Of a DNA stretch of 64,000 nucleotides, positions 2-50,236 are shown piece after piece. Origin of the DNA: Candidatus Poribacteria bacterium (GTDB lineage Bacteria > Poribacteria > WGA-4E > WGA-3G). A model generated the notes under the pieces. That model was not told the origin of the DNA, ran no database searches, and saw only the letters and a program-made list of their open reading frames with translations. The position numbers were made by a program, and so were the translations under genes. The stretch covers positions 5,635,757 to 5,699,756 of the forward strand of contig OZ244616.1 in the NCBI GenBank assembly GCA_965218285.1, read 5' to 3'. The first letter of the stretch is position 1. Every line of letters begins with the position of its first letter.

Positions 2-1630
2 TATATTCTCAGAACAGGATTACCAACCATTGACAATTCTGACCTATATGTTGGGCAAATTCAACACAGTTACGGTATTGGAGATGGGCAACGGTTTACC
101 TACGGATTAGATGTGTTGCTCACTCGTCCGGATACTGAAGGCACGATTAATGGTGCTAATGAAGAAAACGACGACATCAACGAGATAGGCGTTTATTTGC
201 AGTCGGAAACCAATATCCTGCCACAGTTAAAGTTGCTTGCTGCAGGTAGAGCGGATAATCATAACCATCTCAACGATATTGTGCTATCACCGAGGGTCGC
301 ACTTGCGTTTCAACCAAACGATGACCATAACATCAGGGTAACCTATAACCGCGCTTTCAATACGCCAGGAACTTCAAACCTATTTCTTGATATTCTGTCA
401 AAAGAAAACCCATTTATGGTAGGAATCGATATACGGGCACAGGGTGTCCCCTCCGAAACGGGATTTACTTTTAAAAGAAGTGTAGATGGTCGACCAGAGT
501 TTCGATCCCCCTTCTCACCCTCAGGTGACAATTTCATCCCGCTTGATAGCCCCGCATTTACCGACGTCATGTGGAACGTTGCCAGAAGTGCTGTGATGAG
601 TGGCGCGAAACCGGTTTTTGAAGCGGGTTTAGCCGCACAAGGACTTCCTGCAGAGACCGTGGCAGCACTCTCCGCAGGATTTGAAAGTATTATCCCGCAA
701 CAAGTAGCAGGTGTGGAAAACGTTTTACGCGCACTTGATCCAGCAACATCAGGCTTTATTGACGTTGAAGATGTAAATGACGTTGACACGCTTAAGCCAA
801 CCATCACGCAGACTTATGAGGTTGGCTACAAGGGGATTATACTGAATAGATTGGTTTTTTCTGCTGATGTGTATCACTCAAGAATTAACAATTTCATCGC
901 TCCGTTGGCAGTCGAAACTCCTAATGTGTTCTTGGACGCTCCAACGTTAAGTGCTTCTCTCGGTCAGCAGATCGGAGCGGCATTAGCCGATCCGCAAAAC
1001 GCACAACTTGCGCAAGCACTGCTTGCGTTAGACGCACCTACTCAGGGTGGAAACGGCGATGGTTCGCCTATTGATGAGTTGGTAACGTTGTTCGTGGCAG
1101 GAACTGCAAACAACGGTGCTGCTTACATCCCATTTGGCACAGTGACACCCGAACAGGCAGCAGACCCAAACGCTGTCATGCTAACCTATCGCAACTACGG
1201 TGACATATCGCTCAACGGATTAGACCTGAATTTCACCTTTTTCCTCAATCCGAGTTGGAGTCTCGGTGCAAATTATTCGTTTGTCAGCAAAGACCTCTTT
1301 GAGAACGTTGATAGAATCGGTGACATTGCCCTAAATGCACCTAAAAACAAGTACGGTGCGAATGTTCAATACATTAACACGGGGCTTGGATTAGGAGTCG
1401 GACTCCGCGCGCGTTATGTGCAAGGATTTCCTGTCCGATCAGGGGTTTATGTCGGCGAAGTCGAATCGTATTGGACGGTTGATCTAACTGCAGGCTACGA
1501 TATTCCACTCGGTCCCAAGCCACGTCTTTCGGTGACTGTCCAAAATCTGCTGGATCGTAAACACCAACAATTTGTCGGAACACCCGAAATTGGTAGGTTG
1601 GCAATTGCACGTTTGACGCAAACTTTTTAA
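2..1630 (+). CDS. TonB-dependent outer-membrane receptor, C-terminal about 540 aa (5' end lies outside window)
   Basis: Frame is open from position 2 with no upstream stop. Sequence shows alternating amphipathic beta-strand character (e.g. RVTYNRAFNTPG, VGLRARYVQGF) and ends with a terminal aromatic residue (..ARLTQTF), as TBDR barrels do. Confidence 0.55.
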   Translation, partial: YILRTGLPTIDNSDLYVGQIQHSYGIGDGQRFTYGLDVLLTRPDTEGTINGANEENDDINEIGVYLQSETNILPQLKLLAAGRADNHNHLNDIVLSPRVALAFQPNDDHNIRVTYNRAFNTPGTSNLFLDILSKENPFMVGIDIRAQGVPSETGFTFKRSVDGRPEFRSPFSPSGDNFIPLDSPAFTDVMWNVARSAVMSGAKPVFEAGLAAQGLPAETVAALSAGFESIIPQQVAGVENVLRALDPATSGFIDVEDVNDVDTLKPTITQTYEVGYKGIILNRLVFSADVYHSRINNFIAPLAVETPNVFLDAPTLSASLGQQIGAALADPQNAQLAQALLALDAPTQGGNGDGSPIDELVTLFVAGTANNGAAYIPFGTVTPEQAADPNAVMLTYRNYGDISLNGLDLNFTFFLNPSWSLGANYSFVSKDLFENVDRIGDIALNAPKNKYGANVQYINTGLGLGVGLRARYVQGFPVRSGVYVGEVESYWTVDLTAGYDIPLGPKPRLSVTVQNLLDRKHQQFVGTPEIGRLAIARLTQTF

Positions 1631-1702
1631 CGCTCTTCCATCAAATCCCCATGCTTTAGCTTGTGGGATGTAGATGGCGCATGATGTGTGTGAAAAATAA
1701 AC

Positions 1703-1732
1703 TTGACAAACGCCCCGAAAATGTAGTATAAT
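1703..1732 (+). promoter_or_regulatory. consensus sigma70-type promoter inside element left end (TTGACA 1703-1708, 18-nt spacer, TATAAT 1727-1732)
   Basis: Read directly. The same hairpin-then-promoter arrangement recurs in every element of this family. Confidence 0.5.
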
Positions 1733-1899
1733 TATAGCAACTTGCTGGATAGGAATACTACCCTGCATACTTATGCAGGTCCTATCCTTACCAGTAGTAT
1801 GGTGTGTGGCAAGTTGCAAGTGAGACCTTGTCCAACATCTATTATTTCGGTGTCGTTCATGTAAGTCGCAAGCGGAGTAATAACCCCGCGCCTTGTATC

Positions 1900-2088
1900 G
1901 GCACCCCCATTTATTATTTTTTGCAGGCTGGGGTGCCCAGGACAAGAATGCCTGATAAAACCGATCTGATTCGGAATAATAGCCTGCTGGTGGAGCGATA
2001 ATAAGACGGTGGACTCTCTGAGAAAACCGCAGTTGCTACGAAGCCGAGGTCTCCCCTACCTTTAGGTAGTGGGTGGTATCACAATATA
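1900..2088 (+). ncRNA. putative TnpB-type omegaRNA (reRNA) scaffold. Boundaries approximate.
   Basis: Homologous to the region downstream of the tnpB remnant at 30420-30608. Ends in the RE hairpin cccctacctttaggtagtggg. Confidence 0.35.
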
Positions 2089-2092
2089 AAGA

Positions 2093-3025
2093 CTAAGGCT
2101 TTACCGGCTTCACACACCGAAAACCGGCGGGAGAAAAGCTGCTGTCTTCTGGAGCCTGTCTGCTACGCCTGGAAACTCTTACATGATCAGGTCCAAAGAT
2201 AAATCCACCACCACGCGACACACGGGGACTTTTAACATCTTTATAGTTTTTTACTATATCCGTAATGCTATCCGCACCCGCAATCGGATTTCGATCCGGT
2301 GAATCCTTATAAAAATTAGCTTGATATTCATCAAGACACCACTCTTCCAGGTTACCCGCCATATCATACAAGCCATAGTCGTTAGGAGGGTATGACCCTA
2401 CAGATACTGTAGAAGGATTCACCTCGTAATTTGCCATACTGGTATCAATTGAATCGCCCCGCGGGTAATCTTTATTTTTCAAACCACCGCGAGCCGCTTT
2501 CTCCCATTCCGCTTCTGTCGGCAAACGTTTCCCTACCCATTTTGCATAAGCCATTGCTGCATACCAGTCCACATTAACGGGATGATTACCCTGTCCTTCT
2601 GGATAGTCATTTCCATTCCAATAGCCCAGGTAAGTTTCGTTACCTACAAATCTAACATTGTCCTTTTGCCACTCCGGATTAGCATCAAGGAATTTTTTAA
2701 ATTCAGCATTTGTTACTTCGTATTTATCTATATAAAAAGCGTCTACATAGACGGTATGCACTGGGACTTCGTCTGCCTGAGGACCATACGGACCATACTT
2801 TTCAACTTCAACAGGTCCATTGTTTCCCATCTGAAATTTGCCTATGGGAATCAGGACCATACCCGTTTCATCGTTGGCATCAGGATTCGGTGTTCTACAA
2901 CCAATAAAAGATACAAGCACCATGCAAGGAATTGAGATGAATTTTACCATTTTCCAGACATTTTGAAGTGTAACTACTGCAGTACCAGTAGCAGTTCTTT
3001 TTTCGAACGTGTTTTTATTATGCAT
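2093..3025 (-). CDS. formylglycine-generating-enzyme (FGE/SUMF1, DUF323) family protein, probable lipoprotein. True start likely near 2950 (MVKFISIPCMVLVSFIGC).
   Basis: FGE-sulfatase-domain motifs: GMVLIP...F.MG, YIDKYEVTNAEF, RLPTEAEWE.AARGG, YGLYDMAGN..EW. Lipobox FIGC. Confidence 0.65.
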   Translation of the reverse strand: MHNKNTFEKRTATGTAVVTLQNVWKMVKFISIPCMVLVSFIGCRTPNPDANDETGMVLIPIGKFQMGNNGPVEVEKYGPYGPQADEVPVHTVYVDAFYIDKYEVTNAEFKKFLDANPEWQKDNVRFVGNETYLGYWNGNDYPEGQGNHPVNVDWYAAMAYAKWVGKRLPTEAEWEKAARGGLKNKDYPRGDSIDTSMANYEVNPSTVSVGSYPPNDYGLYDMAGNLEEWCLDEYQANFYKDSPDRNPIAGADSITDIVKNYKDVKSPRVSRGGGFIFGPDHVRVSRRSRQAPEDSSFSPAGFRCVKPVKP

Positions 3026-3074
3026 TTTTTCTCCTAAAGAATTAAATTACATCAGAATTTTTACACTCTTCCTG

Positions 3075-3468
3075 TCAAATCCCCATGCTTTAGCTTGTGG
3101 GATGTAGACGGCTAAAATCGTTATTTGTCAAAAAACCTTGACATTTTCACTGACACTTGATATACTCTTTTTAGCAGTCGGCATTGGTTCTGATTGATGC
3201 GGTGGTAGACCGCTTGGCAGTGAAACAATCAGGTAAAAGCCTTGCGATTCAATACTGCTAAAGTTCTTTGTAACATCTATTGCACGTTTAGGATAGCACG
3301 TTTGAAAAGACAGCATCCGCTTGAAAATCACGTGTCAAAATAATTAGTTGCCTTCGGGCAAGTGGCTGGCTTAGCAGCCACTGTGGAGCAGACATAAGAC
3401 GCTTCTTCGGAAACGCTGACTGCTACGAAGCACAAGCCCCAGCCTTTAGGCTGTGGGTACTATGACTA
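3075..3468 (+). mobile_element. ORF-less TnpB-family derivative (LE hairpin, promoter, omegaRNA-like RE)
   Basis: Hairpin ccccatgctttagcttgtggg at 3081-3101 plus atgtagacggc. TTGACA(3138-3143)-17-TATACT(3161-3166). 3' end ...agcctttaggctgtgggtactatgac parallels the other right ends. Confidence 0.45.
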
Positions 3469-3962
3469 AAGCCTTTGCCAGAAGGTTGCATATATGCCCG
3501 TACTAACTCTGGTGATGCACTCCCACACGTAAACGAGTGGGCTTCTTGAAGAAGATCCGCCTCCACAAGGCACAACGACGAACCCAAGTGACGTAGGAGA
3601 TATGCAACACCTACGGTACGCACCACAGATACGACTACAGGGAGAGTTTTGAGTGTGGAACTCCCTGATACGTTACCGCTCAATTAGCGAGTATAACGGA
3701 GACCCTAAAAGTCTCACTTGCGTTTAGGCGAAACAAAACTTTTGTTGTTTCGGTATCTAAATCGGGGTTTTCCCAGCAACAAGCAAAGTCCTCTATGCAA
3801 TTTGGATGGGGAGACACTTTCGTAAGGATACGAAAGATTGCATTGCCTCCCACTGCTTGATACTCCAATTATACCACATTTTTTTGTTTTGTGTCAACTT
3901 TTTTTTTGACTTTGGCACGGGCGTTACTGGGTTGGACCCACAGCTAAAGCAGTGGGATTGTT
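3469..3962 (-). mobile_element. probable minus-strand ORF-less TnpB-family derivative (LE hairpin at 3937-3956, promoter on minus strand)
   Basis: Hairpin cccacagctaaagcagtggg with flank attgttag. On the minus strand it is followed by TTGACA-17-TATAAT (plus-strand complements TGTCAA 3892-3897 and ATTATA 3869-3874). The same hairpin and flank occur at 53061 (+) and 62898 (-). Confidence 0.3.
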
Positions 3963-4589
3963 AGACAATGCCCTTCAGTAAAAGCACTTAATTATTAGGA
4001 TGGCGTCGCGTGGTTTGTTGATGAAGTTACGAACCTCGTTACAGGCAACAATCCAGCAAATGTCTACATGTTTATTTGAGATTTTACATTTTACTATAAA
4101 TCGGATCACTTCGTTATTTGAGCAAGTTTCGTGCCAATGTTTCTAAGAATGCGTAATATTGTGTCAGGAAAGATGAAATTCTATGCATATTTTTATCATC
4201 TGTCTTAAACATAGACTCAGACTAAGTTTATCAAGTGAGCGGATATCTTAATTTTTTCGAGAAAAATCACATTAGCGTTCGTTTTCCAACCTTTGCTTTT
4301 TATGGTGTGCAAAAATTGTGGTAGAGTCCTGCATAAATTGCTGCATTATAGTAAGGTCTATAATTATTTACATAATTTGACCTTTGGACAACTTCAAAAC
4401 ACGACTATAAATGTAAGAGGCGCAATGAATTGCGCGACTACAAACGCAGTAAACCCAAAGAAAAGTGTATAGGTATTTTTGGATTTCACTATAAGCAATT
4501 TTGGTAGTGGATATTTGGAAGAAATTTACCATTAGTAGCAGGCGAACGTAGTCATTATTGGAGTGGGTCGAACTGTCCTTATACTGGAC

Positions 4590-5381
4590 TCAGGTTCTAG
4601 GGTGCTCTACTCTCCTGGCTTTAACAGCATACATAGGCCACGAAAAATAGAAATCGTCCTCAGAGGCTTCAACTGTGTAATGCTTTTTTGCATCATCAGG
4701 TGAAAGTTTAGCAAACGCATCACGGATTTCTTGGACCACTTCTGGTGGGTTTTTCTGTGGACGTACCCACCACAAAAACGACATTTGTGCATTTCGCACA
4801 TGCGCTGTTTTCTCAATCTCAAAATCCGCATTCGCAATCATCGCATCCCACTGAGATGGCGGATACCCAAATACATGAGAATCGTCGCGTAATTTCTCTA
4901 CGCGGTTCTGCCATGCTATTAACTGTTCTGATTCAGGGGAAACGGAATCGACGAGACAAAAAAGTCCAGCTATTCGTAGAACCCGATGGACCTCAGACAA
5001 GAATTTTGGGACGTTTTGAAAATGGTGAGGGGCAAGTCGACAGGTCACTAAATCTAACGACGCAGTAGCAAACGGTAGAGATTCTGCAGCGGCAACAGAA
5101 AACGCGATATTCTCTATCGTTTGTTCCTGTGCGAGTTCGGATGCTTTCGTTACCATCTCCGGTGTTAAATCAGTAGCGACAACATGCGCTACTTTTGGAG
5201 CAAGTGCGAACGCTGTAAAACCTGTGCCTGTCGCAATATCCAGTGCTTTTTCTGTCCCTTTTGGATCCGCAAAGTTAAGGATTACCTCAAGGGTATCACC
5301 TTTTGCATGCGCACTGCTTTGCGCGTAGTACTCAGCATGTTGGCTAAACTGGTCTCGGACAGTGGTATGGATGGATTTCAT
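4590..5381 (-). CDS. class I SAM-dependent methyltransferase
   Basis: Motif I LDIATGTGFTA, acidic motif II VATDL, Methyltransf_11-like layout. Confidence 0.7.
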   Translation of the reverse strand: MKSIHTTVRDQFSQHAEYYAQSSAHAKGDTLEVILNFADPKGTEKALDIATGTGFTAFALAPKVAHVVATDLTPEMVTKASELAQEQTIENIAFSVAAAESLPFATASLDLVTCRLAPHHFQNVPKFLSEVHRVLRIAGLFCLVDSVSPESEQLIAWQNRVEKLRDDSHVFGYPPSQWDAMIANADFEIEKTAHVRNAQMSFLWWVRPQKNPPEVVQEIRDAFAKLSPDDAKKHYTVEASEDDFYFSWPMYAVKARRVEHPRT

Positions 5382-5466
5382 ATATTAGTTGTCGGGTAAA
5401 GAGGATTATTTCAAACTGGAAGAGGCACGATGTATTGCGCGACTACAAACGATTTATGAGAATGCG

Positions 5467-6594
5467 TTAGTTAAAGACAATAACGCCACGGGCATTTTCA
5501 CCGGCTTCCATATCCGCAAACGCCTCATTAATCTGATCAAGTTGATAATGTTTTGTGATCAGTTCATCTAACTTCAACTTCCCTTCCGTATATAGATTAA
5601 GAAGTTTCGGCATATCCACCCGGGGTTGACATGAACCGTAGAACGAACCGATTATCTGCCTTTCAGATGCGACGAAGTGTTGCGCTGGAATGCTGAATTC
5701 CATTTCATGGTGTGCCATTCCAACAATTACCGCAGTGCCAGCAGCGCGCACCATACGATATGCTTGAACGATAGTTTTCGGATTGCCGATGACTTCAAAA
5801 GCATAATCTACGCCGCGACCATCGGTTAATTCACGAACCGCTTCAATAGGATCACATTCAGCAGCGTTGACGACATCCGTAGCACCAAAACGTTTGGCAA
5901 AGTCAAGTTTTTTCTGAGCAATATCAACAGCGATAATCTTTTCTGCTTGTGCAAGCACAGCACCTTGAATGGCATTTAAACCTACACCGCCGGTTCCAAT
6001 AATCGCTACAGAACTACCGGGTTCCACCTTCGCTGTATTGAGAACTGCACCAACACCTGTTGTCACACCACATCCGACAAGCGCAGCTTGCGCTAACGAA
6101 TAATGATTATCTATTTTGACGAGGTTTTGTTGTGGCACGACCATATATTCCGACATCGTTGCAATCCGTGTCATCTGAAGGATACCCTCACCCGATTTGT
6201 TATATAAGCGATAAGTGCCATCTAATTGAAACCCGCGAGGTACATCGTAACTTTCGCAAAGGCAGACTTTCTCCATCTGACACATGTGGCAATCACCGCA
6301 ATATGTGACGAAGGATAGAATTACATGGTCACCCGGTTGGAAATCTGCTACATCCTCACCTACACGTTCAATTATACCTGCGCCTTCGTGTCCGAGTACG
6401 ACAGCAGCATCGTAGTAGATAGCACCCGTAACGACCGATAGATCAGAGTGGCACACACCACTTGCAGCAGTACGGACAAGGACTTCATTGGCTTTCGGTT
6501 CTTCTAAGTCCAGTTCCTCAACAACCACAGGTTGATTATGTTCATACATAACAGCGGCGCGTGTTTTCATCACTCTTCGGACTGGAGACCCCAT
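5467..6594 (-). CDS. zinc-dependent alcohol dehydrogenase family oxidoreductase. True start probably MKTRAAV near 6570.
   Basis: GHEGAGIIERVGEDV zinc-ADH signature, structural-zinc cysteines (CGDCHMC), GTGGVGL Rossmann motif. The first 8 codons of the listed ORF are supplied by an IS-derived repeat. Confidence 0.75.
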   Translation of the reverse strand: MGSPVRRVMKTRAAVMYEHNQPVVVEELDLEEPKANEVLVRTAASGVCHSDLSVVTGAIYYDAAVVLGHEGAGIIERVGEDVADFQPGDHVILSFVTYCGDCHMCQMEKVCLCESYDVPRGFQLDGTYRLYNKSGEGILQMTRIATMSEYMVVPQQNLVKIDNHYSLAQAALVGCGVTTGVGAVLNTAKVEPGSSVAIIGTGGVGLNAIQGAVLAQAEKIIAVDIAQKKLDFAKRFGATDVVNAAECDPIEAVRELTDGRGVDYAFEVIGNPKTIVQAYRMVRAAGTAVIVGMAHHEMEFSIPAQHFVASERQIIGSFYGSCQPRVDMPKLLNLYTEGKLKLDELITKHYQLDQINEAFADMEAGENARGVIVFN

Positions 6595-6908
6595 CCTTTA
6601 GGTTGGGGAGGAAAGCCCGCTCCTTTTATTTTTGGTATTAGGAGTTTAGTTTCCAATCAAATATAACTGAAAACTAAATCCCTAATATGCACAAACATAA
6701 GTTTGCGTTCTCCCTTTCGGGGTGTCTGTTGCCCCATCCAGATCACAGTATCCGAGAGGAATCGGACTTGGGGAGCATCCGAAACATCGTGCTGGCTACC
6801 ACGCCAAGATACTGCGATATTTTACTGTAGTCAACGGTTTAACTTGTGAAGTGGACGCTCGGATTGCGCTTTGCACAAGCCCCATGCTTTAGCTTGGGGT
6901 TATTGACC
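6568..6908 (-). mobile_element. ORF-less IsrB-type element: RE repeat (6568-6624) plus omegaRNA module (about 6715-6908), with no isrB gene
   Basis: 6568-6624 matches 14918-14973 (catcactcttcgg.ctggagaccccatcctttaggttggggaggaaagcccgctcc). 6722-6908 aligns almost base-for-base with 16000-16190, the region between the IsrB start codon and the LE terminus ...ccccatgctttagcttggggttattgac. Confidence 0.55.
6715..6908 (-). ncRNA. orphan IscB/IsrB-type omegaRNA scaffold copy
   Basis: Near-identity to the 5' UTR module of the intact isrB at 15977-16190. Confidence 0.4.
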
Positions 6909-6963
6909 ACTAACCGATGATATTAACCTGTATATTTTCGTGCAATGCTGTGCATTTCACTTC

Positions 6964-8055
6964 TTATACGGTTTGCAAGTTACTCATAGATAGTAACCAG
7001 GGTTCATCTACCAAAGCACGCAGGAATATCCCGCGTGCGCCATTCAAGTCTCTGTTCATCTTGAGTCCTGTGCTATCTTTGATTATCTTTCGTCCGCCGA
7101 GTGATTTTCTAATCTCACCATTCCAAGAAACTGTTTTTGATGTGTATGCTTCACAGACATCAACTACAATACATCCAGTTTCTTCTGCTTTATGTTTTAG
7201 AAATTGTTTGAATCTGTAGTGAGATAGTGTCAACATTTGTCTTGCAGACTTTTTTCGTAGTTTGCGTTTTCCACGCATCACCATATCTGAAGTCTCAAAT
7301 GTGGGGAGCAAGATAATATCAAAGTTATCAACAAGGTATCGTGCAACTTTATGGTGCAATTCATCAACAAGATTTCTGATACGTGTGCGTATTCTGTTTG
7401 CAGCACGTCTCATATTCTTGCGTGATTGTTGAGTCGCTTTTGTTGCATGGGATAAAAGATTATCAAGGTGTGAACAAAGTCTTTGAATCCGATTAATAGC
7501 ATGGTGTCCAAGCCATCCGAAACCACGCTCATGAAAATATGTGAGGAATGTTCTCACGCCAAGGTCTAAAGCAACAACACGTCCGTTTGACTTTCGCTTC
7601 GGAGTTGTCACAGTATAAGATACACATAGATAGTATTTATCATTCTCTTTTACCAGTCGGGAGTCACAGATATTATCAGGTAACATCTCTGACATCTTTA
7701 GCTCACCAAGTAAGGTATGATAGACACCGCGTGGTTTTATAGCAGACTTTGGAATGAAAATACTATCTGATGGATGACGTTTAGACTTGAAAGAAACAGA
7801 TTGAAACTCACCTGTTTTCTTACATTTTCGCTTTGCTTCTCTGACAGCAATAGACTTTATCTGATACGGAGTTTCTTTGCTCCAATCAGGTAGATCGTGA
7901 AGAATGCCTGTTTTTATCGCTTTCCAATTTGCTTTTGTGTCTGTTTCGTTCAACAAAGCAACGGTTTTATCGAGTTTCGGTGTCAAAACCCAATGCTTTA
8001 GCTTTGGGATGTAGACACCGCCCTCTTGTATTAGACCAAAACTTTTTCTTGACAT
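6964..8055 (-). CDS. tnpB: TnpB-like RuvC-fold nuclease (IS200/IS605/IS607 accessory protein). N-terminus probably disrupted; the annotated first ~25 codons run through another element's left end.
   Basis: RuvC-I VVALDLGVRTF, RuvC-II LLPTFETSDM, C-terminal ..CEAYTSKT..NRDLNGARGIF (RuvC-III D.N.A..I motif) with a degenerate zinc finger. The -35 box of an opposite-strand promoter overlaps the annotated ATG. Confidence 0.65.
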   Translation of the reverse strand: MSRKSFGLIQEGGVYIPKLKHWVLTPKLDKTVALLNETDTKANWKAIKTGILHDLPDWSKETPYQIKSIAVREAKRKCKKTGEFQSVSFKSKRHPSDSIFIPKSAIKPRGVYHTLLGELKMSEMLPDNICDSRLVKENDKYYLCVSYTVTTPKRKSNGRVVALDLGVRTFLTYFHERGFGWLGHHAINRIQRLCSHLDNLLSHATKATQQSRKNMRRAANRIRTRIRNLVDELHHKVARYLVDNFDIILLPTFETSDMVMRGKRKLRKKSARQMLTLSHYRFKQFLKHKAEETGCIVVDVCEAYTSKTVSWNGEIRKSLGGRKIIKDSTGLKMNRDLNGARGIFLRALVDEPWLLSMSNLQTV

Positions 8056-8411
8056 AAAACACGATTCTTGCTATAATCTCTTTTCGTAACTCCACGGGTT
8101 GTGAGCAGGCGTTCTGGGTGCTACATACCGAGTGAACTCACGTAAAGTTGCGACACAAGCGGTAGAAGTCTTTGACACCAGATAGTTGCTGATGGAAGCT
8201 TAGAGTGTAATGGGAAAGAGTGGTAGGACACCATCCCGAAAACAGCACTCTCAAAAATGTTCATAAGACACCTTCGGGTGTGCAGGCGGGGCATCGTCTG
8301 TTGGAGTAGAGGGTGTTAGACTTGCTTAGCAAGCAACCCTTGTTGATACCACAATCTACACAGCAGGTGGGACAAAAGAACCCCACTGCTTTAGCTGTGG
8401 GAGTATGTCAG
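7983..8411 (+). mobile_element. plus-strand ORF-less TnpB-family derivative lying between the tnpB body and its N-terminal fragment
   Basis: LE hairpin cccaatgctttagctttggg (7995-8014) plus atgtagacacc. TTGACA(8049-8054)-17-TATAAT(8072-8077). RE hairpin ccccactgctttagctgtggg (8388-8408) plus agtatgtcag, as at 63502-63530. Confidence 0.4.
8049..8077 (+). promoter_or_regulatory. consensus sigma70 promoter (TTGACA-17-TATAAT) on the plus strand
   Basis: Read directly. Confidence 0.45.
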
Positions 8412-8530
8412 TGTAAGTGAAACGTGCAGTGCCCAACCACTGCCGAAGTGTTTCACGTTGTTCTGTTGTCGGATAGACTCTTATCTTCTTTGATTTTGTC
8501 ACGGTAACTTCTGAGCCCGTGCATCCGGCA
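8356..8530 (-). pseudogene. tnpB: tnpB N-terminal fragment (..KKIRVYPTTEQRETLRQWLGTARFTYTD..) directly downstream of tnpA. Same frame as the 6964-8055 body, but separated from it by about 300 bp containing a stop.
   Basis: Canonical TnpB N-terminus pattern (Y.FRLYPT.EQ...L....G.ARFVYN). The listed ORF 8356-8967 ends inside hairpin 8388-8408. Confidence 0.45.
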
Positions 8531-9040
8531 ACTGAAGACATGCAAGATTGCGAGAAGATCCGCTGTGAGTTCTTCTTGTGGACTGTGTTCTGTTTTGTCC
8601 AAAACCACGAGTTCGCCACCGTTTTGTTCAATAAGGTATCGTATAAGGTCGATACCGAAGCGGGCGAGTCTATCCCAATGGGCAATAACAACTTGGAGCT
8701 TATCACCTCGCATAAGCCGTTCCAATAAGGTTCTAAGACCTTTTCTTTTGAAGTTGATACCACTTCCGATGTCTCTGATAACTGCTGCGTCGGGGTAGAT
8801 GCTTCGCATATACGCAACTTGTCGTTCAAGGTCATCTCTTTGCTTTGTGCTGGATACTCTGCAGTAGCAAACAGTTGTAATTGATTTGGATTTGCTTTTG
8901 ATGTATCCTTCAACATCATAGCGTCTGTGTCCGCCTCCTGTGCGGATAATATCAATCTTTCCTTCATTTGCTAACTTCCTTAAATGGTCGGGTGTATAAT
9001 CCAGCAGTTCACTTGCTTTACGGGCTGATACATAAGTCAT
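8453..9040 (-). CDS. tnpA: IS607-family serine recombinase TnpA (MerR-like HTH plus resolvase catalytic domain)
   Basis: N-terminal HTH (ASELLDYTPDHLRKLANEGKI). Catalytic-serine motif YCRVSSTKQ. tnpB starts overlapping its 3' end, as in IS607. Confidence 0.75.
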   Translation of the reverse strand: MTYVSARKASELLDYTPDHLRKLANEGKIDIIRTGGGHRRYDVEGYIKSKSKSITTVCYCRVSSTKQRDDLERQVAYMRSIYPDAAVIRDIGSGINFKRKGLRTLLERLMRGDKLQVVIAHWDRLARFGIDLIRYLIEQNGGELVVLDKTEHSPQEELTADLLAILHVFSCRMHGLRSYRDKIKEDKSLSDNRTT

Positions 9041-9099
9041 ACTATATTATAATATATATCAATAGAAATGTAAAGAAAAATATAGATTTTTAGATACTG

Positions 9100-9999
9100 T
9101 TACTCAACCTCTTTAAGCAATGCCTGTGTTTGCCGATTGGATGTTTTGAAGTACGTCGCTAAGGTTTGTTGTAATTTATCAAGTTGATGACGGTCACTTT
9201 CAAGAGAGTTAATTCGCTTTTCATAACTTTCTAAGTTGGTGAGACGTTCAAAGATATCTTGTAGTAGGTTTTCCAATTCGCGGTAGCGCACCTGCTCTTC
9301 TTCCAATAATTCCATTTTCTCTGCCATTAAGGTGAGCGTTTTCTTAGTCTTGTCCAACTCAGTCTGAAGCGTTCGTGTAAAAACGATTAATTTCTCCAGC
9401 GTATTAGTCGTTTTATAGACCGGTACCTCTGGATCCGTAGGAGGGAAACTTTTGGGGATAACATGGACATCATCTTTTTCTGGAATATCTTCTGAATTAT
9501 CTTCAGTTAAATCTATATCAGTTTTTTGGGGAATACCAAGTTCTGGATTTGGTGGAGTAACAGGTTGAATTTCAAAGACACCTAACAATTTGATATTATA
9601 TGTAGATGGAATATAGTTCTCTTTACGCTCAGTATAAGATATTTGGACACGAAGTTCCTGAGTAATCTTCAGAGAATTCAGACGGGTATGGATATTTCGG
9701 ATCGCAACCTCATTATACCCGAATGCTTGATTCGATTTCGGAGTTAACTGCCGGAGATAACGGTAGAGTTCCATCACATCAGAACTTTCCCGCGAGATAC
9801 CCTCTTTCGTTAAAATTCCGACTATGTCTTCATCTTCAGGATTTGTGGATGTTTGCAAACTCGGTATGACAATGTCCAGAGGCACTTCGCCTTGAATTGC
9901 CTTCATCCCAAGAGTCCAACTGTTCTCTGAAAGTCTACCGCTGAAGGCGATAAAGTCGTAACTTATTGTCATTGTTTTTTCAACCTTATCTTTTTTCAA
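9100..9999 (-). CDS. hypothetical protein with an acidic Pro-rich middle region and a C-terminal coiled coil
   Basis: Long ORF with no recognisable catalytic motifs. C-terminal heptad-like E/L/K-rich segment. Confidence 0.4.
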   Translation of the reverse strand: MKKDKVEKTMTISYDFIAFSGRLSENSWTLGMKAIQGEVPLDIVIPSLQTSTNPEDEDIVGILTKEGISRESSDVMELYRYLRQLTPKSNQAFGYNEVAIRNIHTRLNSLKITQELRVQISYTERKENYIPSTYNIKLLGVFEIQPVTPPNPELGIPQKTDIDLTEDNSEDIPEKDDVHVIPKSFPPTDPEVPVYKTTNTLEKLIVFTRTLQTELDKTKKTLTLMAEKMELLEEEQVRYRELENLLQDIFERLTNLESYEKRINSLESDRHQLDKLQQTLATYFKTSNRQTQALLKEVE

Positions 10000-10095
10000 T
10001 CTTTGAAATCACACAAGCAAGATTTTGGACACCTCACTTGCTTAGTGTTTAGGTGTTTTGGCTATAACTCAAACACAGGTTCCATTTGTGCCCAC

Positions 10096-10320
10096 CATTC
10101 ATCACTCTTCGGGCTGGAGACCTTATCCTTTAGGTTGGGGAGGAAAGCCCGCCTCCTTTTGTTAATAAGTGCAGGTGATTTAATCTTGCACCTGCTACGA
10201 GATGTCTGTGTTGGGTATCGCCCAGACGACGCGACCTGTAGTCAACTGTTTAACTTGTGGAGTGGACGCTTGGTATGCGCTTCGCACAAGCCCCATGCTT
10301 TAGTTTGGGGTTATTGACTC
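10096..10320 (-). mobile_element. truncated ORF-less IsrB-type element (RE repeat plus about 85 nt of the omegaRNA 5' region plus LE terminus)
   Basis: 10096-10150 matches the RE repeat. 10237-10318 matches 16105-16190 (ctgtagt.caac.gtttaacttgtggagtg.acgcttggtatgcgcttcgcacaagccccatgctttag.ttggggttattgac). Confidence 0.5.
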
Positions 10321-10740
10321 TAATCCTTCTAACGCCTTTTGAATAATTTCACTATGATCAAAGGCAAGTTGTGGCAAGCCTGATGTTGAAAACCATGCAA
10401 CTTCCGAGGCATCGGAGCCCGCTACGGTTTTCTGTTGTTCCGATTTAATGATTCCAACGTAGGCGACGGTGATAACACGTCCACGTGGATCACGGTCAGG
10501 ATGTCCAAATGTCCCTATCTGTGTCAATTGCACTTCAGATATACCTGTTTCCTCATGCAACTCGCGAAGAGCACTCTCCTTAAGAGTTTCATCCATTTCC
10601 AGAAACCCACCTGGCAATGCCCACAAGTCTTTGAAAGGTGGATTCTTACGACGAATTAATAAGACTTGTGGATGCAGTGCATCCATCAATAGTACAACAT
10701 CAACAGTAACTGAGGGACGTGGATAATCATAACAATACAC
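10300..10740 (-). CDS. NUDIX hydrolase
   Basis: Nudix box GG.LE..E....A..REL.EETGI (ALPGGFLEMDETLKESALRELHEETGI). The last 5 codons and the stop are supplied by the terminus of the adjacent IS-derived element. Confidence 0.75.
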   Translation of the reverse strand: MYCYDYPRPSVTVDVVLLMDALHPQVLLIRRKNPPFKDLWALPGGFLEMDETLKESALRELHEETGISEVQLTQIGTFGHPDRDPRGRVITVAYVGIIKSEQQKTVAGSDASEVAWFSTSGLPQLAFDHSEIIQKALEGLESITPN

Positions 10741-14597: not shown

Positions 14598-14947
14598 ATA
14601 AAACGCACTTACTTTTTACATGAGCCTGATTTTTTACTATAGACTTATTATTCTTCGGCACACAACGTATGCATGCTAATCGTTATAGAAAACCCACAAT
14701 CATTCTTATGATGTGGTAGATGCCGAATTCTAAAAGCGTATCTGCTGTTAATTCACCACGCGTTTCCCTACCGAATAATCTATTCGTGTAACGTTTCTTC
14801 AAAGACTTCAAGGTTTTGTGCCTGAGCTGCATCGAGGAGCAGCTGTTCCAGGCGTTGCAAATCTTCTATGTTTTGAAGTGCCGGTGTTAAGGCATTCACG
14901 GCTTCTACATGGAATTTCATCACTCTTCGGGCTGGAGACCCCATCCT

Positions 14948-15976
14948 TTAGGTTGGGGAGGAAAGCCCGCTCCTATAGTTAAAATTCAGACGCGTAAGAA
15001 CTTTGAAATCCTGTCGTTTCGCGCCTGTGGTGATTCGTTTCCCATCCAAACTGTAGATAGAAAACAAACCTTTTGCGTTAATACCTGAAAGTCTTGTTAA
15101 TCCGTGTTTGACATGCTTCACCAAAGTGTTCTTGACCAAGCCTTGTGCTAATATGGTGCCACCATATCGCGAACGAATGCCGTTCTTTTGTGGGTTCTGC
15201 CGATGAAGTTCACGTCTTGAAACAGGTATCGGTGCGATGCAGAATATATCTGTGTTGTCGGGGACATCCACCCCACCGACAGTGTGATATGCCAAACACC
15301 AACTATCTACACAGTGTGCATCAAACGTCTCTGTGAGTTTCTTGAAAGACTTCTTGAGTCCAAGTCTATCTCGAAGTTCTTTCGTCTCCCAACCTTGAAG
15401 TGTGAACAATGTCCATCGCTTTTGTATCTCACTATAGAACCAAGACTTTCCGACTTCAAGAGGACTGAAAGAACTATTCCACTTTTTCGCACGTTTGATA
15501 GTCCTTGCTCTAATATCCTCTACACAGACATGTGTGACAGGATACATATTAGACAACCAATCCAAAATACGCAGTTTCCAATCCCATCTCGCACGCGTGC
15601 CAGCCGGTATCCTTTCTTTATTAGCAGGGTGCCGATTAGTTCGGTTCTTTCGGTTTGGACACGAACGACTCCGACGGGTTCTCCGAAGTTCGCGACGCTT
15701 TTCTATTTTTTTACCCACTTTGCTATGTGCATCAGTTTGAACATTCAAATACGTGTGTGCCTCAGACTTCACCGTGAACCCTTCTTTCTTGCTGCCAGGG
15801 TCTACACCTACAGCAATCTCTTGTTTGTATTCTGTTGTTTCGTAGTTTAATCGAATACAGAAGATACCATTATTCCAATACGGGGTCGCCTTACCACTTT
15901 TGATAAGGTGCCTCGCAACTGGCGGAGAAGTGGGCATCAGTTGTTCACCATCCTTAGATTTCACTGGAACGAACAT
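14948..15976 (-). CDS. isrB: IsrB: RNA-guided RuvC nuclease/nickase of the IscB family lacking the HNH insert (342 aa)
   Basis: N-terminal PLMP domain (KSKDGEQLMPTSPPVARHLIKSGKA). RuvC-I AVGVDPGSKKEGFTV. Arg-rich bridge helix KRRELRRTRRSRS. RuvC-II CVEDIRARTIKRA. RuvC-III DAHCVDSWCLAY. No HNH/Cys4 segment. Size typical of IsrB. Confidence 0.7.
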   Translation of the reverse strand: MFVPVKSKDGEQLMPTSPPVARHLIKSGKATPYWNNGIFCIRLNYETTEYKQEIAVGVDPGSKKEGFTVKSEAHTYLNVQTDAHSKVGKKIEKRRELRRTRRSRSCPNRKNRTNRHPANKERIPAGTRARWDWKLRILDWLSNMYPVTHVCVEDIRARTIKRAKKWNSSFSPLEVGKSWFYSEIQKRWTLFTLQGWETKELRDRLGLKKSFKKLTETFDAHCVDSWCLAYHTVGGVDVPDNTDIFCIAPIPVSRRELHRQNPQKNGIRSRYGGTILAQGLVKNTLVKHVKHGLTRLSGINAKGLFSIYSLDGKRITTGAKRQDFKVLTRLNFNYRSGLSSPT

Positions 15977-16190
15977 GTCGTTAGAACTCCTTTTCAGGGT
16001 ATGTGTTTCCCCATCCAGATCACAGTATCCGAGAGGGATCGGACTTGGGGGGCATCCGAAACATCGTGCTGGCTACCACGCCAAGATACCACGATATATT
16101 ACTGTAGTACAACGGTTTAACTTGTGGAGTGAACGCTTGGTATGCGCTTCGCACAAGCCCCATGCTTTAGCTTGGGGTTATTGACCTTCA
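15977..16190 (-). ncRNA. IsrB omegaRNA (5' of isrB, same strand). Guide segment expected immediately beyond 16190.
   Basis: About 215-nt conserved structured module between the LE terminus and the start codon. Copied without the ORF at 6715-6908, 10237-10320 and 30635-30800. Confidence 0.5.
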
Positions 16191-16411: not shown

Positions 16412-19400
16412 CTACTGATTTGCTTGGACAATTTCCGCGTGTGTTTTACCGAAATAGGAGGCAACCTGAACGAGGTCAAGGATATTTACCTCACCATCCA
16501 TGTTCACATCGCCAGAAAGTCCTTCGCCAGATTCGCCGAATTGGTTTGCAACCGCAACCAAATCCAAGATATTCACCGTGCCATCTGCATTGAGATCCCA
16601 CGGCACTGGTTCAATCGTAGTATTAGTTGTAAGTTCAGCAGTTTTCGTGCTATCACCTTGCGAAGTTGCCGTAACTTTGGTTTCATATTCACCTGGTTTT
16701 GTGAAGAAATCACCTGCTGCTGTAAATATAACTTCAGCAGAAGCACCGGCAGCAAGCATAATTTCCAACTGACTTGTAGTAGGTTCCTGATCGGCAGATT
16801 CACTGAATGATCCAAGGACGCTACCTTCAATGCCTACTTCAGCAGAAGATCCAAGCACTACCGTATCTTCTGTGTTACCGGTGTTTGTCACTGTGAGGGT
16901 ATAACTGACACCTGCAAGCATATCCATCGTTGCGCCTTTGAGTTCACCTTCACTTTGCAACGTAACGCCGTAAACAGGGAGAATAGTTGTCTTTGTTGAA
17001 ACCTCCGCAGTTTTCGTGCTATCGCCTTGCGAAGTAGCCGTGACTTTGATTTCATATTCACCTGGTTTTGTGAAGAAATCACCTGCTGCTGTAAATATAA
17101 CTTCAGCAGAAGCACCGGCAGCAAGCATAATCTCCAACTGATTTGTAGTAGGTTCCTGATCGTCAGATTGGCTGAATGAACCAAGAACACTCCCTTCAAT
17201 CCCAAACTCTGCAGAAGATCCAAGCACTACCGTATCTTCTGTATTACCGGTGTTTGTCACTGTGAGGGTATAACTGACACCTGCAAGCATATCCATCGTT
17301 GTGCCTGTGAGTTCACCTTCACCTGTCAATGTAACACCATAAACAGGGAGAATAGTCGTGTTCGTTGAAATCACAGCAGTTTTCTTGCTATCACCTTGCG
17401 AAGTTGCTGTAACTTTGATTTCATATTCACCTGGTTTTGTGAAGAAATCACCTGCTGCTGTAAATATAACTTCAGCAGAAGCACCGGCAGCAAGTATAAT
17501 CTCCAACTGACTTGTAGTAGGTTCCTGATCGGCAGATTGGCTGAACGAACCAAGAACACTCCCTTCAATCCCAAACTCTGCAGAAGATCCAAGCACTACC
17601 GTATCTTCTGTATTACCGGTGTTTGTCACTGTGAGGGTATAACTGACACCTGCAAGCATATCCATCGTTGCGCCTTTGAGTTCACCTTCACTTTGCAACG
17701 TAACGCCGTAAACAGGGAAAACAGGGAGAATAGTTGTCTTTGTTGAAACCTCAGCAGTTTTCTCGGTATCGCCTTGCGAAGTAGCCGTAACTTTGATTTC
17801 ATATTCACCTGGTTTTGTGAAGAAATCACCTGCTGCTGTAAATATAACTTCAGCAGAAGCACCGGCAGCAAGCATAATCTCCAACTGATTTGTAGTAGGT
17901 TCCTGATCGGCAGATTCACTGAATGATCCAAGGACGCTACCTCCAATGCCTACTTCAGCAGAAGATCCAAGCACTACCGTATCGTCTGTATTACCGGTGT
18001 TTGTCACTGTGAGGGTATAACTGACACCTGCAAGCATATCCATCGTTGTGCCTTTGAGTTCACCTTCACCTGTCAATGTAACACCGTAAACAGGGAGAAT
18101 AGTCGTGTTTGTTGAAACCTCAGCAGTTTTCGTGCTATCACCTTGCGAAGTTGCCGTAACTTTGGTTTCATATTCACCTGGTTTTGTGAAGAAATCACCT
18201 GCTGCTGTAAATATAACTTCAGCAGAAGCACCGGCAGCAAGCATAATTTCCAACTGACTTGTAGTAGGTTCCTGATCGTCAGATTCACTGAACGAACCGA
18301 GAACACTCCCTCCAATCCCAAACTCTGCAGAAGATCCAAGCACTACCGTATCTTCTGTATTACCGGTGTTTGTCACTGTGAGGGTATAACTGACACCTGC
18401 AAGCATATCCATCGTTGCGCCTTTGAGTTCACCTTCACTTTGCAACGTAACGCCGTAAACAGGAAGAATAGTTGTCTTTGTTGAAATCACAGCAGTTTTC
18501 GTTTTATCGACTTGTGAGGTTGCTGTAACGTTAACTTCGTACTGACCAGCAATCGCAAGGTCATCACCGGAAATCGTTAATATTATTTCTGCTGAAGCCC
18601 CCGCGGCAAGCGATACAACGGTCTGACTTAAGGTAGCAGCATCACCTGACGTTGTTAAATCTATCACGTCATCTGTGTTACTAATATTTGTGATTTTGAG
18701 GGTATAACTGACACCTTCCCTTGCATCAGATGTCTCGGTGGTCAAGACTCCTACGCCAACTAACGTAACACCATGAACAGGAAGAATAGTTGTGGTCGTT
18801 GAGACCGCAGCCGTTTTCGTGTTATCTCCCTGTGAGGTAGCTGTAACTTTGACTTCATAATCCCCTGCAGTTGTAAGCACAGCATCGGAAACAGTCAATG
18901 TCACTTCAGTTGAAGCACCCGCGGCAAGCGAGACAGATGTTTCACTTAAGGTCGCTGTGGCATCGCCTGACGTTGATAAATCTACAACGTCATCTGTGTT
19001 GCCGGTGTTCGCGATGGTGAGCATATAACTGATACCTTCACTTGCATCAGATATTTTAGTAGTCAACTCATCTACACCTGCTAACGTAACACCATAAACA
19101 GGGAGAATAGTTGTGTTCGTTGAAATCACAGCAGTTTTCGTTTTATCGACTTGTGAGGTTGCTGTAATCTTAACTTCGTAGTTGCCTGCTGTCGCAAGGG
19201 CATCACCAGAAAGCGTTATTGTTACTTCCGCAGAAGCACCCGCAGCAAGCGACACAGATGTCTGACTCAAGATAGCAGCATCATCTGATGATGTTAAATC
19301 AATGACGTCATCTGTATTCCCAGTGTTCGTGGCGGTGAGCATATAACTGACGCCTTCACTTGCATCAGTTGTTTCACTGGTCAATTCACCTACGCCTGCT

Positions 19401-29644: not shown

Positions 29645-29884
29645 CGGTAGCGAAACCATAGGCGTCAATTTAAGGAAAGAACTCGTTTGTAGTCGCGCAC
29701 TTCATAGTGCCTCGGACATTCAAAGAAAAGAGGCGCTATGAATTGCGCGACTACGAACGCTGATATTCTCGTCCTTTGCGTTATTTGAGATGTTGATACA
29801 AAAAGGTGCGGTTAGGAAACCGCACCTACCGGGTTGGGAACCGCTAAATTGACGCTTATGGTGCGGTTAGGAAACCGCACCTAC
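29645..29884. mobile_element. MITE of the ggtgcggtt-palindrome TIR family (type 2 interior with a 29-bp-stem hairpin). Left TIR truncated.
   Basis: Shares ataggcgtcaatttaaggaaagaactcgtttgtagtcgcgca...gaggcgctatgaattgcgcgactacgaacgctgatattctcgtcctttgcg with the units at 45412-46524. Right end has two copies of ggtgcggttaggaaaccgcacc. Confidence 0.5.
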
Positions 29885-29939
29885 CAGGTGTGTTCATATA
29901 TTAATTTTGGCTATATATTATTAACGTGTGTGACAAAAT

Positions 29940-30040: not shown

Positions 30041-30243
30041 TTGATCTTTACTTTAACGATCTTCCGTCAAATCCCCATGCTTTAGCTTGCGGGATGTAGA
30101 TGGCAACCTTTGGTTTACTTCGTGAAAAAAGATTTGACTTTTTTCTAAAGATGTTGTATGATTAGAGTATCAAGTTGACAGGCATTTTCAGCGTAGTCGC
30201 AAGACTATGTGCCTGTCTTACCCACTGAAAAGGGGTTAAGTGC

Positions 30244-30474
30244 TTGATACTTGAGACATCGTCCATGAAAACCTATAAATATGAGTTTTCTCATCAATCT
30301 AACTTGATACAGATTGGCAATCTGATAGACGATGGACATAGCGTACATGTCCATTTATTGCGTCTACAACCGCTTTCAGACCGATATTGGACATGTCCAG
30401 AATGCAGCACACACCACGATAGAGACGTAAATGCTGCCATAAACATTTTGCAGGCTGGGGTGCCCGTGTCTTGA
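30244..30474 (+). pseudogene. tnpB: internally deleted tnpB (76 codons: N-terminal segment fused to the zinc-finger/RuvC-III C-terminus)
   Basis: [21 protein letters not shown] is a canonical TnpB C-terminus. The RuvC-I/II regions are absent. Confidence 0.6.
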
Positions 30475-30608
30475 TGCACGATAAAACTGCTCTGATGCAG
30501 AATAATAGCCTGCTGGTGGAGTGATAATAAGACGGTTGACTCTTTGAGAAAACCGCAGTCGCTATGAAACCTAAGCCCCTACCTTTAGGTAGTGGGTGGC
30601 ATCACAAT
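30440..30608 (+). ncRNA. putative TnpB-type omegaRNA (reRNA). Boundaries approximate.
   Basis: Overlaps the tnpB 3' end and runs to the RE hairpin cccctacctttaggtagtggg, as in characterised IS605/IS1341 TnpB systems. Duplicated at 1920-2088. Confidence 0.4.
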
Positions 30609-30634: not shown

Positions 30635-31052
30635 GTCAATAACCCCGCGCTAAAGCATCGGGGCTTGTGCGAAGCGCATGCCAAGCGTCCACTCCACAAG
30701 TTAAACGGTTGACTAGACGATATATCGCGGGTCTTGTCGTGGCAGGAAACCACAAGATGTTACGGATGCTCCCCAAGTCTGTATCCGCTCTGATCCCGTG
30801 ATGTCGATGGGGAAACATATACCGCGAGAGCGTGGGCTTATAGCCATTATTTTCTGGTAAAGACATCGTGTCAGGTCAAGTAAGCGAGTAGTGACAGTCT
30901 CACTGAACGAAGCAGCACAACTGAATCCAGACTCCCAGTGTGCAGGTGGAGATAAAACAGCACTCCCCCTTTTGGGGACAAATTATAACTATAATAGGAG
31001 CGGGCTTTCCTCCCCTGCCTAAAGGCGAGGGGTCTCCAGCCCGAAGATTTTG
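30635..31052 (+). mobile_element. ORF-less IsrB-type element in plus orientation (LE/omegaRNA module at 30635-30800, RE repeat at about 30995-31052)
   Basis: Reverse complement of 30635-30800 aligns to 16020-16190. Reverse complement of 30997-31048 matches the RE repeat (ggagcgggctttcctcccc..cctaaagg..ggggtctccagcccgaag). Confidence 0.5.
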
Positions 31053-38962: not shown

Positions 38963-38993
38963 TGTATTAATGTATTAATTCCTTACTATACAG

Positions 38994-39747: not shown

Positions 39748-39753
39748 ATGTAC

Positions 39754-41438: not shown

Positions 41439-41536
41439 TTTGGACAGTCTCTCTTAACGTGTATTTGTCATATTTTCACACAAATACACAAAAATTTCAA
41501 CAACTAATACCCAATTAACTGGATTCTAATCTATCA

Positions 41537-45336: not shown

Positions 45337-45411
45337 TAGAATTAAACATGAAAACATAACCTAAGTTCAACTAATACCATATTAACAGGATTTATCTCAT
45401 TTTTCTTGGTA

Positions 45412-48999: not shown

Positions 49000-49001
49000 T
49001 T

Positions 49002-50235: not shown

Positions 50236-50236
50236 C

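Follow-up and report, generated by a model that had tools for sequence, protein, structure and literature searches.

Introduction

Palindrome-associated transposable elements (PATEs) have been described in Haloquadratum walsbyi (Dyall-Smith et al. 2011, PMC3119063) and in Geobacillus stearothermophilus (ISGst1/ISGst5), and 'often encode omegaRNAs' for use by TnpB in trans (Meers et al. 2023, 10.1101/2023.03.14.532601). Here we analyse eight mini-elements, E1–E8, that probably belong to this class and that lie in a 64,000-nucleotide stretch of the genome of a Candidatus Poribacteria bacterium (assembly GCA_965218285.1, contig OZ244616.1, positions 5,635,757–5,699,756), referred to below as the window. 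As far as PATEs are characterized in the available portions of these accounts, E1–E8 resemble them in having subterminal palindromes on one strand, no inverted terminal repeats, no target duplication and a length too short to encode a protein. They likewise share their ends with IS605-type elements, which in the known PATEs are resident ones, and have in common with PATEs an origin by core deletion and an omegaRNA. Within the same limits they differ from described PATEs in the phylum of their host, which is Candidatus Poribacteria-like, in consistently keeping a near-consensus promoter and, ahead of the omegaRNA, a pseudoknotted 5' leader, and in the compensatory evolution observed here within a lineage devoid of open reading frames (ORFs). 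Neither a retained promoter nor a structured leader is mentioned in those portions of the two accounts (PMC3119063, 10.1101/2023.03.14.532601). As PATE omegaRNAs have already been published (Meers et al.), the present finding is mainly confirmatory.

Three further systems are close. The tnpB-only elements of the IS200/IS605 family (IS1341 type; ISDra2, ISGst2-4) have the same hairpins, a target motif at the left end (LE) and an omegaRNA that overlaps the 3' end of tnpB and extends to the right end (RE). Elements of this type, as found at the related loci L010, L105, L049 and L030, are the direct parents of the mini-elements, which differ from them in that tnpB is deleted wholly or to stubs of 25–35 residues and which would therefore depend on both TnpB and TnpA in trans. 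The resemblance to IStrons (CdiIStron, CboIStron) lies in a structured RNA on the LE side and an omegaRNA on the RE side of a TnpB-family element, and gene-less mini IStrons are functional as RNA in experiments (Zedaveinyte et al., 10.1101/2023.11.20.567912). Unlike IStrons, E1–E8 have no group I core (no Rfam match), the 5' RNA is a pseudoknot of about 90 nt behind its own promoter, and nothing suggests splicing. As in TldR and other domesticated TnpB loci (Wiegand et al., PMC10705468), the guide RNAs have a TnpB ancestry and are found apart from a nuclease-active transposon gene; in contrast to TldR, the RNAs lie inside mobile hairpin-bounded elements, their guides match their own flanks only and no nuclease-dead TnpB partner is present.

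Ends and descent of the mini-elements

We interpret E1–E8 as PATEs, i.e. as non-autonomous, protein-less derivatives of tnpB-only IS200/IS605 transposons that carry a promoter and an omegaRNA. The probability of this explanation is put at roughly 0.72, a figure which covers PATE identity, the retained parts and the mechanism proposed below jointly. Each of the eight elements is bounded on either side by a hairpin of the pattern CCCnnnnC-TTTA-Gnnnn(T)GGG in which a T is bulged or mismatched, the two hairpins lying on the same strand. The strict form of this pattern was matched 7 times in the window and not once in 100 shuffles. The eight hairpin-bounded elements of the original prediction, which had been made from the bare sequence, were accordingly recovered, at 400–650 bp (individually 402–652 bp). 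None holds an intact gene, the near-terminal palindromes are not accompanied by terminal inverted repeats, and no target-site duplication was observed, either upon excision of E4 in silico or in three mini-elements of a related genome (both described below). The LE, promoter and RE are common to L010, L048, L105, L030 and L072 of related genomes.

The places given for the elements in the original prediction were correct and their boundaries were not, since the LE lies 15–22 nt farther out than each hairpin, directly 3' of a conserved motif. This motif, which abuts the LE and marks the insertion site, is TTAAC/TTTAC in elements of the E1/E2/E5 type (>15 copies) and TTATC/TTACC in those of the E4/E6 type, while no clear target motif was found at the LE of the E3/E7/E8 type. 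E3, which had been placed at 3469-3962 and abutting E2, was refined to 3512-~3978 on the minus strand and hence does not abut it; positions 3467-3511 are flanking DNA that separates the two mutually facing RE ends of E2 and E3. The single layout proposed for all elements holds for the hairpin ends. It does not extend to a homogeneous family, as the elements fall into three LE subgroups (E1/E2/E5, E4/E6 and E3/E7/E8) with mostly dissimilar bodies: by blastn, similarity was limited to E1 and E5 (167 bp) and to E7 and E8 (93 bp), and was undetectable among the other bodies.

A scan for LE hairpins in one genome per species gave 114 loci (L numbers), many of them from Candidatus Poribacteria metagenome-assembled genomes. 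The full-length relative at L010 (1641-3116) encodes a 370-aa TnpB between the same LE, promoter, leader and RE, and further full-length relatives with the same parts encode TnpB proteins of 392 aa (L105), 357 aa (L049) and 404 aa (L030). Related genomes hold both full-length (1.37–1.76 kb) and mini (0.37–0.59 kb) forms. Two copies of a 1.76-kb IS605-type element, at L072:4365-6127 and at L023 (OZ242325.1), carry a Y1 tnpA and an intact 370-aa tnpB between ends shared with E1, E2 and E5. Full-length relatives of the RE-proximal bodies of E3 and E6 were absent from the 114 loci. As to wider context, window positions 48415-51123 are syntenic with a Poribacteria contig at 74–80% identity.

Derivation from tnpB elements of the IS200/IS605 family, as originally proposed, is borne out by homology of the RE to these full-length relatives and by scraps of TnpB. 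The RE-proximal 160–230 nt of E1 and E5 are 82–86% identical to the last ~25 tnpB codons and RE of L010, and the RE-proximal 150 nt of E4 are homologous to the tnpB 3' end and RE of L030. The scraps reported in two copies were confirmed. E5 holds a 69-codon in-frame fusion (30265-30474) of residues 1-35 and 338-368 of the 370-aa L010 TnpB. In E8, positions 63052-63126 correspond to residues 1-25 of the 392-aa L105 TnpB, and a blastx match at ~63107-63436, within ORF 63098-63457, corresponds to its residues 283-392. The presence of both N- and C-terminal scraps points to an origin by deletion, and several independent internal deletions of tnpB would have given rise to the mini-elements. The remaining elements are ORF-free as had been stated; E5 and E8 hold the only TnpB stubs, with none in E1 (blastx) or E7.

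A promoter shared with full-length relatives

A sigma70-like promoter was found 11–40 nt after the LE hairpin. The claim of a near-consensus promoter in every element holds for seven of the eight, all at the same place, and fails for E8. Sites of the form TTGACA-16..18-TATAAT with at most one mismatch occur 10 times in the window, counting both strands, as compared to 2.0 +/- 1.4 times in shuffles, and half of them are the promoters of E1, E2, E3, E4 and E7, in sense orientation and at equal relative position. Three of the four perfect sites in the window belong to E1, E3 and E4. The E5 promoter has 2 mismatches and that of E6 has 3 together with a TG extended -10 box. The element promoters consequently rank among the strongest consensus matches in the window, in agreement with the original prediction. 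Among LE-type hairpins, 34 of 43 were followed within 75 nt by a promoter with at most 2 mismatches, compared to 4 of 400 random windows. The element promoter is the parental tnpB promoter, kept in full-length and mini copies alike.

The right-end module is an omegaRNA-like fold

The check originally suggested for the RE-proximal region was performed with a covariance model of its last 96 nt (R2). R2 gave 19 strong matches, comprising E1, E2, E5 and E8 and 15 related loci, and its matches end at the RE both in these four mini-elements and in the full-length elements L010, L048, L037, L062 and L046. In the alignment, which was fitted to the model and is made up of related sequences, 89.1% of cells were paired as compared to 72.4% in shuffles and 34–45% in slid controls, 13 of 23 pairs had changed on both sides, and 0 of 500 shuffles reached the covariation score. 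A conserved fold with covariation is therefore common to mini and full-length copies, which supports the omegaRNA reading; a lack of conserved RE-proximal structure, by which the original prediction would have been refuted, was not observed. A search with the eight putative guides revealed no second target in the window beyond noise at 4 mismatches.

A pseudoknotted leader RNA behind the promoter

Directly after the -10 box, a pseudoknotted leader of about 90 nt was found in five of the eight elements (E1, E3, E5, E6 and E7) and in many full-length relatives. Its helix P1, GTATCAGG / CCTGATAC in the commonest form, starts 3–5 nt past the -10 box in all copies, close to where transcription is expected to begin, and is followed by P2, a 7-nt bulge and the hairpin P3, and then by CCCA-N7-GGGG, in which N7 is complementary to the bulge and forms the pseudoknot, of 7 bp and of the internal-loop/hairpin-loop kind. 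A covariance model of P1-P3 with the pseudoknot left out (R1) gave 22 matches, and with filters off its five best matches in the window were exactly E5, E1, E3, E6 and E7. For leader and pseudoknot together 91.4% of cells were paired, compared to 72.8% in shuffles and 27–41% in slid controls. All 7 pseudoknot pairs covary even though the pseudoknot is outside R1. The frequency of G-U pairs places the fold on the sense strand. A putative helix P4 (CCC/GGG), which would close the pseudoknot loop, is nearly invariant in its nucleotides, so that covariation speaks neither for nor against it.

The 3' strand of P1 is tandemly duplicated just before the tnpB ATG, which allows an alternative pairing, P1', that also covaries (81.6% paired as compared to 26–48% in slid controls). 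Where the same promoter feeds tnpA, the leader is missing, which ties it to tnpB. A different structured leader is carried by E2, L112, L086 and L088, and yet another by E4. Neither the leader nor the TnpB omegaRNA was matched in Rfam, at gathering score across the window or at permissive E-values across 1500-10500, 29500-64000 and four related loci. No description of a structured tnpB 5' untranslated region (5'UTR) or of a Poribacteria TnpB was found in a limited literature library, by which novelty is unproven; the conserved leader RNA is possibly new and is the only part of the finding that looks so.

In the minimum-free-energy folds of E1 and E2, the first 8–11 nt of the leader pair with the conserved omegaRNA segment GCAGTTGC / GCTGACTGCTA (predicted for 1737-1747 with ~2030-2040 in E1 and for 3172-3182 with ~3413-3423 in E2). 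This pairing was absent from the folds of E5 and L010 and has possibly arisen by chance.

Mobility and constraint in related genomes

Recent movement of mini-elements was observed in a related genome. In the Poribacteria genome with OZ241378.1, three ORF-less mini-elements of ~590 bp lie at 1.10, 2.40 and 2.82 Mb (L033:~3400-4025, L084:~215-830 and L098:~720-1345), each after TTTATC; all three have a pseudoknot leader and a perfect promoter. From the shared TTTATC as far as a shared terminal ...GTCAA their sequences are identical, and no flanking repeat was found beyond TTTATC. Identity at three distant loci indicates recent transposition. A separate observation concerns the mini-element at L112:5941-6348, a mosaic whose leader half is E2-like and whose RE half is E4-like, which suggests that modules of mini-elements have recombined.

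Over its whole length E6 shares 85% identity with L020:550-1134 from another species, the flanks of the two being unrelated. The promoter- and RE-proximal parts are 92–100% identical and the middle 72–80%. About 4 double compensatory substitutions were observed in leader P1, with the segment between its strands unchanged, and an RE-proximal hairpin is likewise compensated (CAGGGT.../...ACCCTG versus CAGGAAC.../...GTTCCTG). These changes argue that RNA structure is under selection even without tnpB. They are also the best support for the part of the original prediction that saw the elements as selected promoter-plus-omegaRNA cassettes, the other part of which, the TnpB at 6964-8055 named as effector, did not stand.

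The TnpB in the window belongs to a disrupted IS607-type unit

An IS607-type unit spans 6964-9040 on the minus strand. Its tnpA (ORF 8453-9040), a serine recombinase with Resolvase and MerR domains, lies upstream of a tnpB that is split by E4 into 8410-~8530 and 6964-7971. Excising exactly 7972-8409 restores one continuous 405-codon ORF, with a 366-residue TnpB part from a VTKSKK start and HTH_OrfB_IS605, OrfB_IS605 and TNB domains; E4 was hence inserted after TTATC without duplication. The ORF at 6964-8055 is thus part of an E4-disrupted gene unrelated to the mini-elements, its 3' region gave no match to the omegaRNA model, and it was rejected as the cognate effector.

Proposed mechanism and alternative explanations

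What the analysis shows is the layout of the elements, their descent from full-length ones, precise insertion without duplication, recent movement of mini-elements in a related genome and the conservation, with covariation, of both RNA structures, also in one ORF-less lineage. The mechanism is patterned on the established IS605/TnpB pathway, from which we infer transcription, processing, TnpB loading, the provision of TnpA in trans and the role of the leader. A Y1 (HUH) TnpA acting in trans, which needs the strand-specific subterminal hairpins and terminal motifs that the elements have kept, would cut out the element and, with no duplication, join it as single-stranded DNA to the 3' side of the target motif. 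A transcript from the LE promoter would run through the leader and the omegaRNA scaffold into 16–20 nt of flank, which would serve as the guide, and would load onto cognate TnpB, the product of a full-length member of the family at another place in the genome. The complex would then cut the emptied donor site (target motif plus flank) and recombination would restore the element.

It is unlikely, if a serious alternative, that the elements are inert relics, i.e. remnants of dead tnpB deletions whose RNA parts persist unselected, by proximity to the ends or by youth. Several observations weigh against the PATE interpretation and most would suit relics. E5 and E8, with their ORF scraps, have the look of plain decay products, and the promoter of E8 is lost, its best candidate site having 4 mismatches. 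In a protein search with the E8 TnpB fragment (63098-63457) the best 120 relatives were all truncated, at 86–208 aa; those among these 120 with a named source were labelled Poribacteria. The closest match, P0002 (93% identity), lies inside a frameshifted tnpB in other genomes. This suggests that truncation and decay of the E8-type TnpB lineage are very widespread. The bodies are heterogeneous, neither an intact cognate TnpB nor a Y1 TnpA was found in the 64-kb window, and the Y1 tnpA of L072/L023 is frameshifted into ORFs of 83 and 61 aa. The omegaRNA of E3, E6 and E7 is assigned by position, RE hairpin and partial similarity, at R2 scores of 15–16 bits. Promoter and leader both adjoin the LE, and their retention could be hitch-hiking. 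What speaks against relics is that E6 and L020, at 85% identity, keep leader P1 and the RE-proximal hairpin through double compensatory changes, that the leaders of E1, E3, E6 and E7 have diverged without losing P1, P2, P3 or the pseudoknot, and that mini-elements moved recently in a related genome. The TnpA of IS608 and of ISDra2 requires just a few tens of nucleotides at each end. The near-consensus promoter kept in seven of the eight elements consequently argues against relics as well.

Two other explanations assign the retention of one part to a different function. Were the elements mobile promoter cassettes, outward transcription from the LE promoter would rewire host genes and be the reason for its retention. 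ORF 51759-52682 begins 8 nt beyond the RE end of E7 and is read from the same strand, E5 is directed towards ORF 31050-32294, and no terminator-like sites were found on the sense strand inside E1, E2 or E4, all as such cassettes would have it. Orientation to host genes is however inconsistent, in that E1 is directed at a convergent gene's 3' end, E2 and E3 point at one another and E4 lies antisense inside a transposon gene; moreover conservation of the promoter is equal in full-length elements, which use it for tnpB, and we regard this explanation as quite improbable. Somewhat less improbable, though still doubtful, is that the payload is the leader rather than the omegaRNA, acting as a small regulatory RNA or as a decoy or regulator of TnpB or tnpB mRNAs in trans. 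Its covariation is strong, including the pseudoknot and P1' next to the tnpB start codon, it has no Rfam match, it is kept in five of the eight copies and P1 shows compensatory evolution in an ORF-less lineage. Yet E2, E4 and E8 lack this leader type and keep the RE module, no trans target was identified, and the position of the leader, that of a cis-acting tnpB 5'UTR, together with its absence ahead of tnpA indicates a cis role tied to tnpB. An IStron-like origin, with a group I intron fused to an IS605 or IS607 end, or membership in another known RNA family is superficially suggested by the order of a 5' structured RNA and a 3' omegaRNA. It is effectively refuted and was rejected, as no Intron_gpI match or other Rfam family was found in any element at gathering or permissive thresholds, and as the 5' structure is just about 90 nt long and stands behind its own promoter.

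Under the PATE interpretation the role of the leader can be guessed at, as 5'-end stabilization and/or a translational switch inherited from tnpB. In a more far-reaching and tentative reading, which is possible without being the favoured one, the leader would be an undescribed cis-acting RNA of TnpB transposons, a conformational switch or 5' stabilizer that tunes tnpB translation and that purifying selection keeps in ORF-less copies for accumulation or maturation of the omegaRNA. The mini-elements would in that case be self-sufficient 'RNA-only' OMEGA elements providing TnpB with extra guides in trans, with the ORF-less IsrB-type copies described below included as a parallel case. The switch element in this reading is the 5' strand of P1, which can pair with one or the other of two tandem 3' strands; of these the second directly adjoins the tnpB start codon.

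Organization of the individual elements

E1 (1632-2082, plus strand) is ORF-less, 451 bp long and inserted directly after a TTAAC that contains the stop codon of a TonB-receptor ORF (113-1630). Its LE subterminal hairpin (1647-1667) reads CCCCATGC-TTTA-GCTTGTGGG, with the stem extended by flanking nucleotides, and is followed by the promoter TTGACA-18-TATAAT (1703-1732, 12/12) and by the leader (1736-1824; 36.6 bits, E=2.8e-7) with P1, P2, P3 and a 7-bp pseudoknot (atactac / gtagtat). The start of the omegaRNA scaffold is probably near 1919 (ttgcaggctgg), as judged from the homologous tnpB 3' end of L010; the 3' core of the scaffold (1984-2082) takes in the terminal TATCAC as well as the RE hairpin (2053-2073). 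The predicted guide is the flank just outside the RE (2083-2102), assigned by position from the IS605 omegaRNA layout.

E2 (3065-3466, plus strand) is ORF-less, 402 bp long and inserted after TTTAC. It comprises an LE hairpin (3081-3101), a promoter (3138-3166; 11/12, TG extended), the other structured leader type (~3172-3265) and an omegaRNA core (3377-3466) with the RE hairpin at 3437-3457. E3, on the minus strand, is ORF-less and ~467 bp long, its RE ending in ...gcatcac at 3512. The LE hairpin lies at 3937-3956, the promoter at 3897-3868 (12/12), the leader at 3769-3864 (23.7 bits, E=0.0011) and the RE hairpin, CCCACTCG-TTTA-CGTGTGGG, at 3522-3541. E4 (7972-8409, plus strand, 438 bp), inserted after TTATC inside the IS607-type tnpB, has its LE hairpin at 7989-8008, its promoter at 8049-8077 (12/12) and its RE hairpin at 8382-8401.

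E5 (30058-30605, plus strand, 548 bp) has an LE hairpin at 30073-30093, a promoter at 30134-30162, a leader at 30166-30257 (99.9 bits) and an omegaRNA core at 30510-30605 (110.7 bits), with the RE hairpin at 30576-30596. E6 (46600-~47177, minus strand) is ORF-less and 578 bp long, with an LE hairpin at 47140-47159, the promoter TTGATT-17-TATTAT with TG at 47101-47073, a leader at 46984-47069 and an RE hairpin at 46608-46627. E7 (52690-~53102, minus strand) is ORF-less and ~413 bp long; the LE hairpin lies at 53061-53080, the promoter at 53049-53021 (11/12), the leader at 52927-53016 (16.5 bits, E=0.11) and the RE hairpin, with loop TCAA, at 52698-52717. The neighbouring ORF 51759-52682 is SdiA-regulated/phytase-like, and the E7 promoter could read into it. 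E8 (~62878-63529, plus strand) is decayed and ~652 bp long, with an LE hairpin at 62898-62917, an omegaRNA core at 63441-63529 (31.8 bits) and an RE hairpin at 63502-63521.

Other elements and repeats in the window

A second hairpin-bounded ORF-less family, probably of the IscB/IsrB (HEARO, OMEGA) type and with copies 79–96% alike, was also observed. One element is complete (~14915-16185, minus strand) and holds an intact 342-aa RRXRR ORF (14948-15976; IsrB-like, no HNH match), which places a candidate effector for this family in the window. The ORF is lacking from copies at ~6565-6907 and ~30635-31056, and 10175-10318 is a partial copy; in these the RNA starts, with GUCAAUAACCCC, exactly at the element end. 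Matches to HEARO (RF02033), by which the family came to light and which the complete element gives as well, are weak (E=0.003–0.04, 30.5 bits as compared to a gathering score of 83), and relative to RF02033 the family is a divergent lineage, separate from that of E1–E8.

No tRNA genes were found in the window. Many copies of a REP-like palindromic repeat, TAAATTGACGC...GGTGCGGTTAGGAAACCGCACC, are present in both orientations (29845-29886, 41507-41957, 45390-45448, 46390-46439 and 51134-51501), and weak matches to Rfam ncS025 lie close to two of these (29797-29879 and 46382-46464). Other repeats at 45460-46307, 38901-39864, 27010-27829 and 16412-25378 include tandem units with AAATGTAAGAGGCGCAATGAATTGCGCG (spaced 236 and 169 bp), a 40-bp tandem array, an 18-nt coding repeat and a 2988-aa protein made of repeats of ~318–369 nt.

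Implications

The analysis corrects the assignment of the nearby TnpB, which is a disrupted IS607-type gene and not the effector. Practical gains are modest and consist of natural, compact promoter-plus-scaffold cassettes and of models, backed by covariation, of a TnpB omegaRNA and a new 5' leader. For the organism, the window depicts a Poribacteria-like genome of the sponge-symbiont type in which both OMEGA classes, TnpB-type and IsrB-type, are represented largely by protein-less, promoter-bearing guide-RNA elements. Should these RNAs be transcribed and put to use in trans, a single nuclease gene could protect or home many elements. Such an arrangement of one nuclease and many guides would correspond to the modular arrangement that has been proposed between transposon guides and multi-guide systems.

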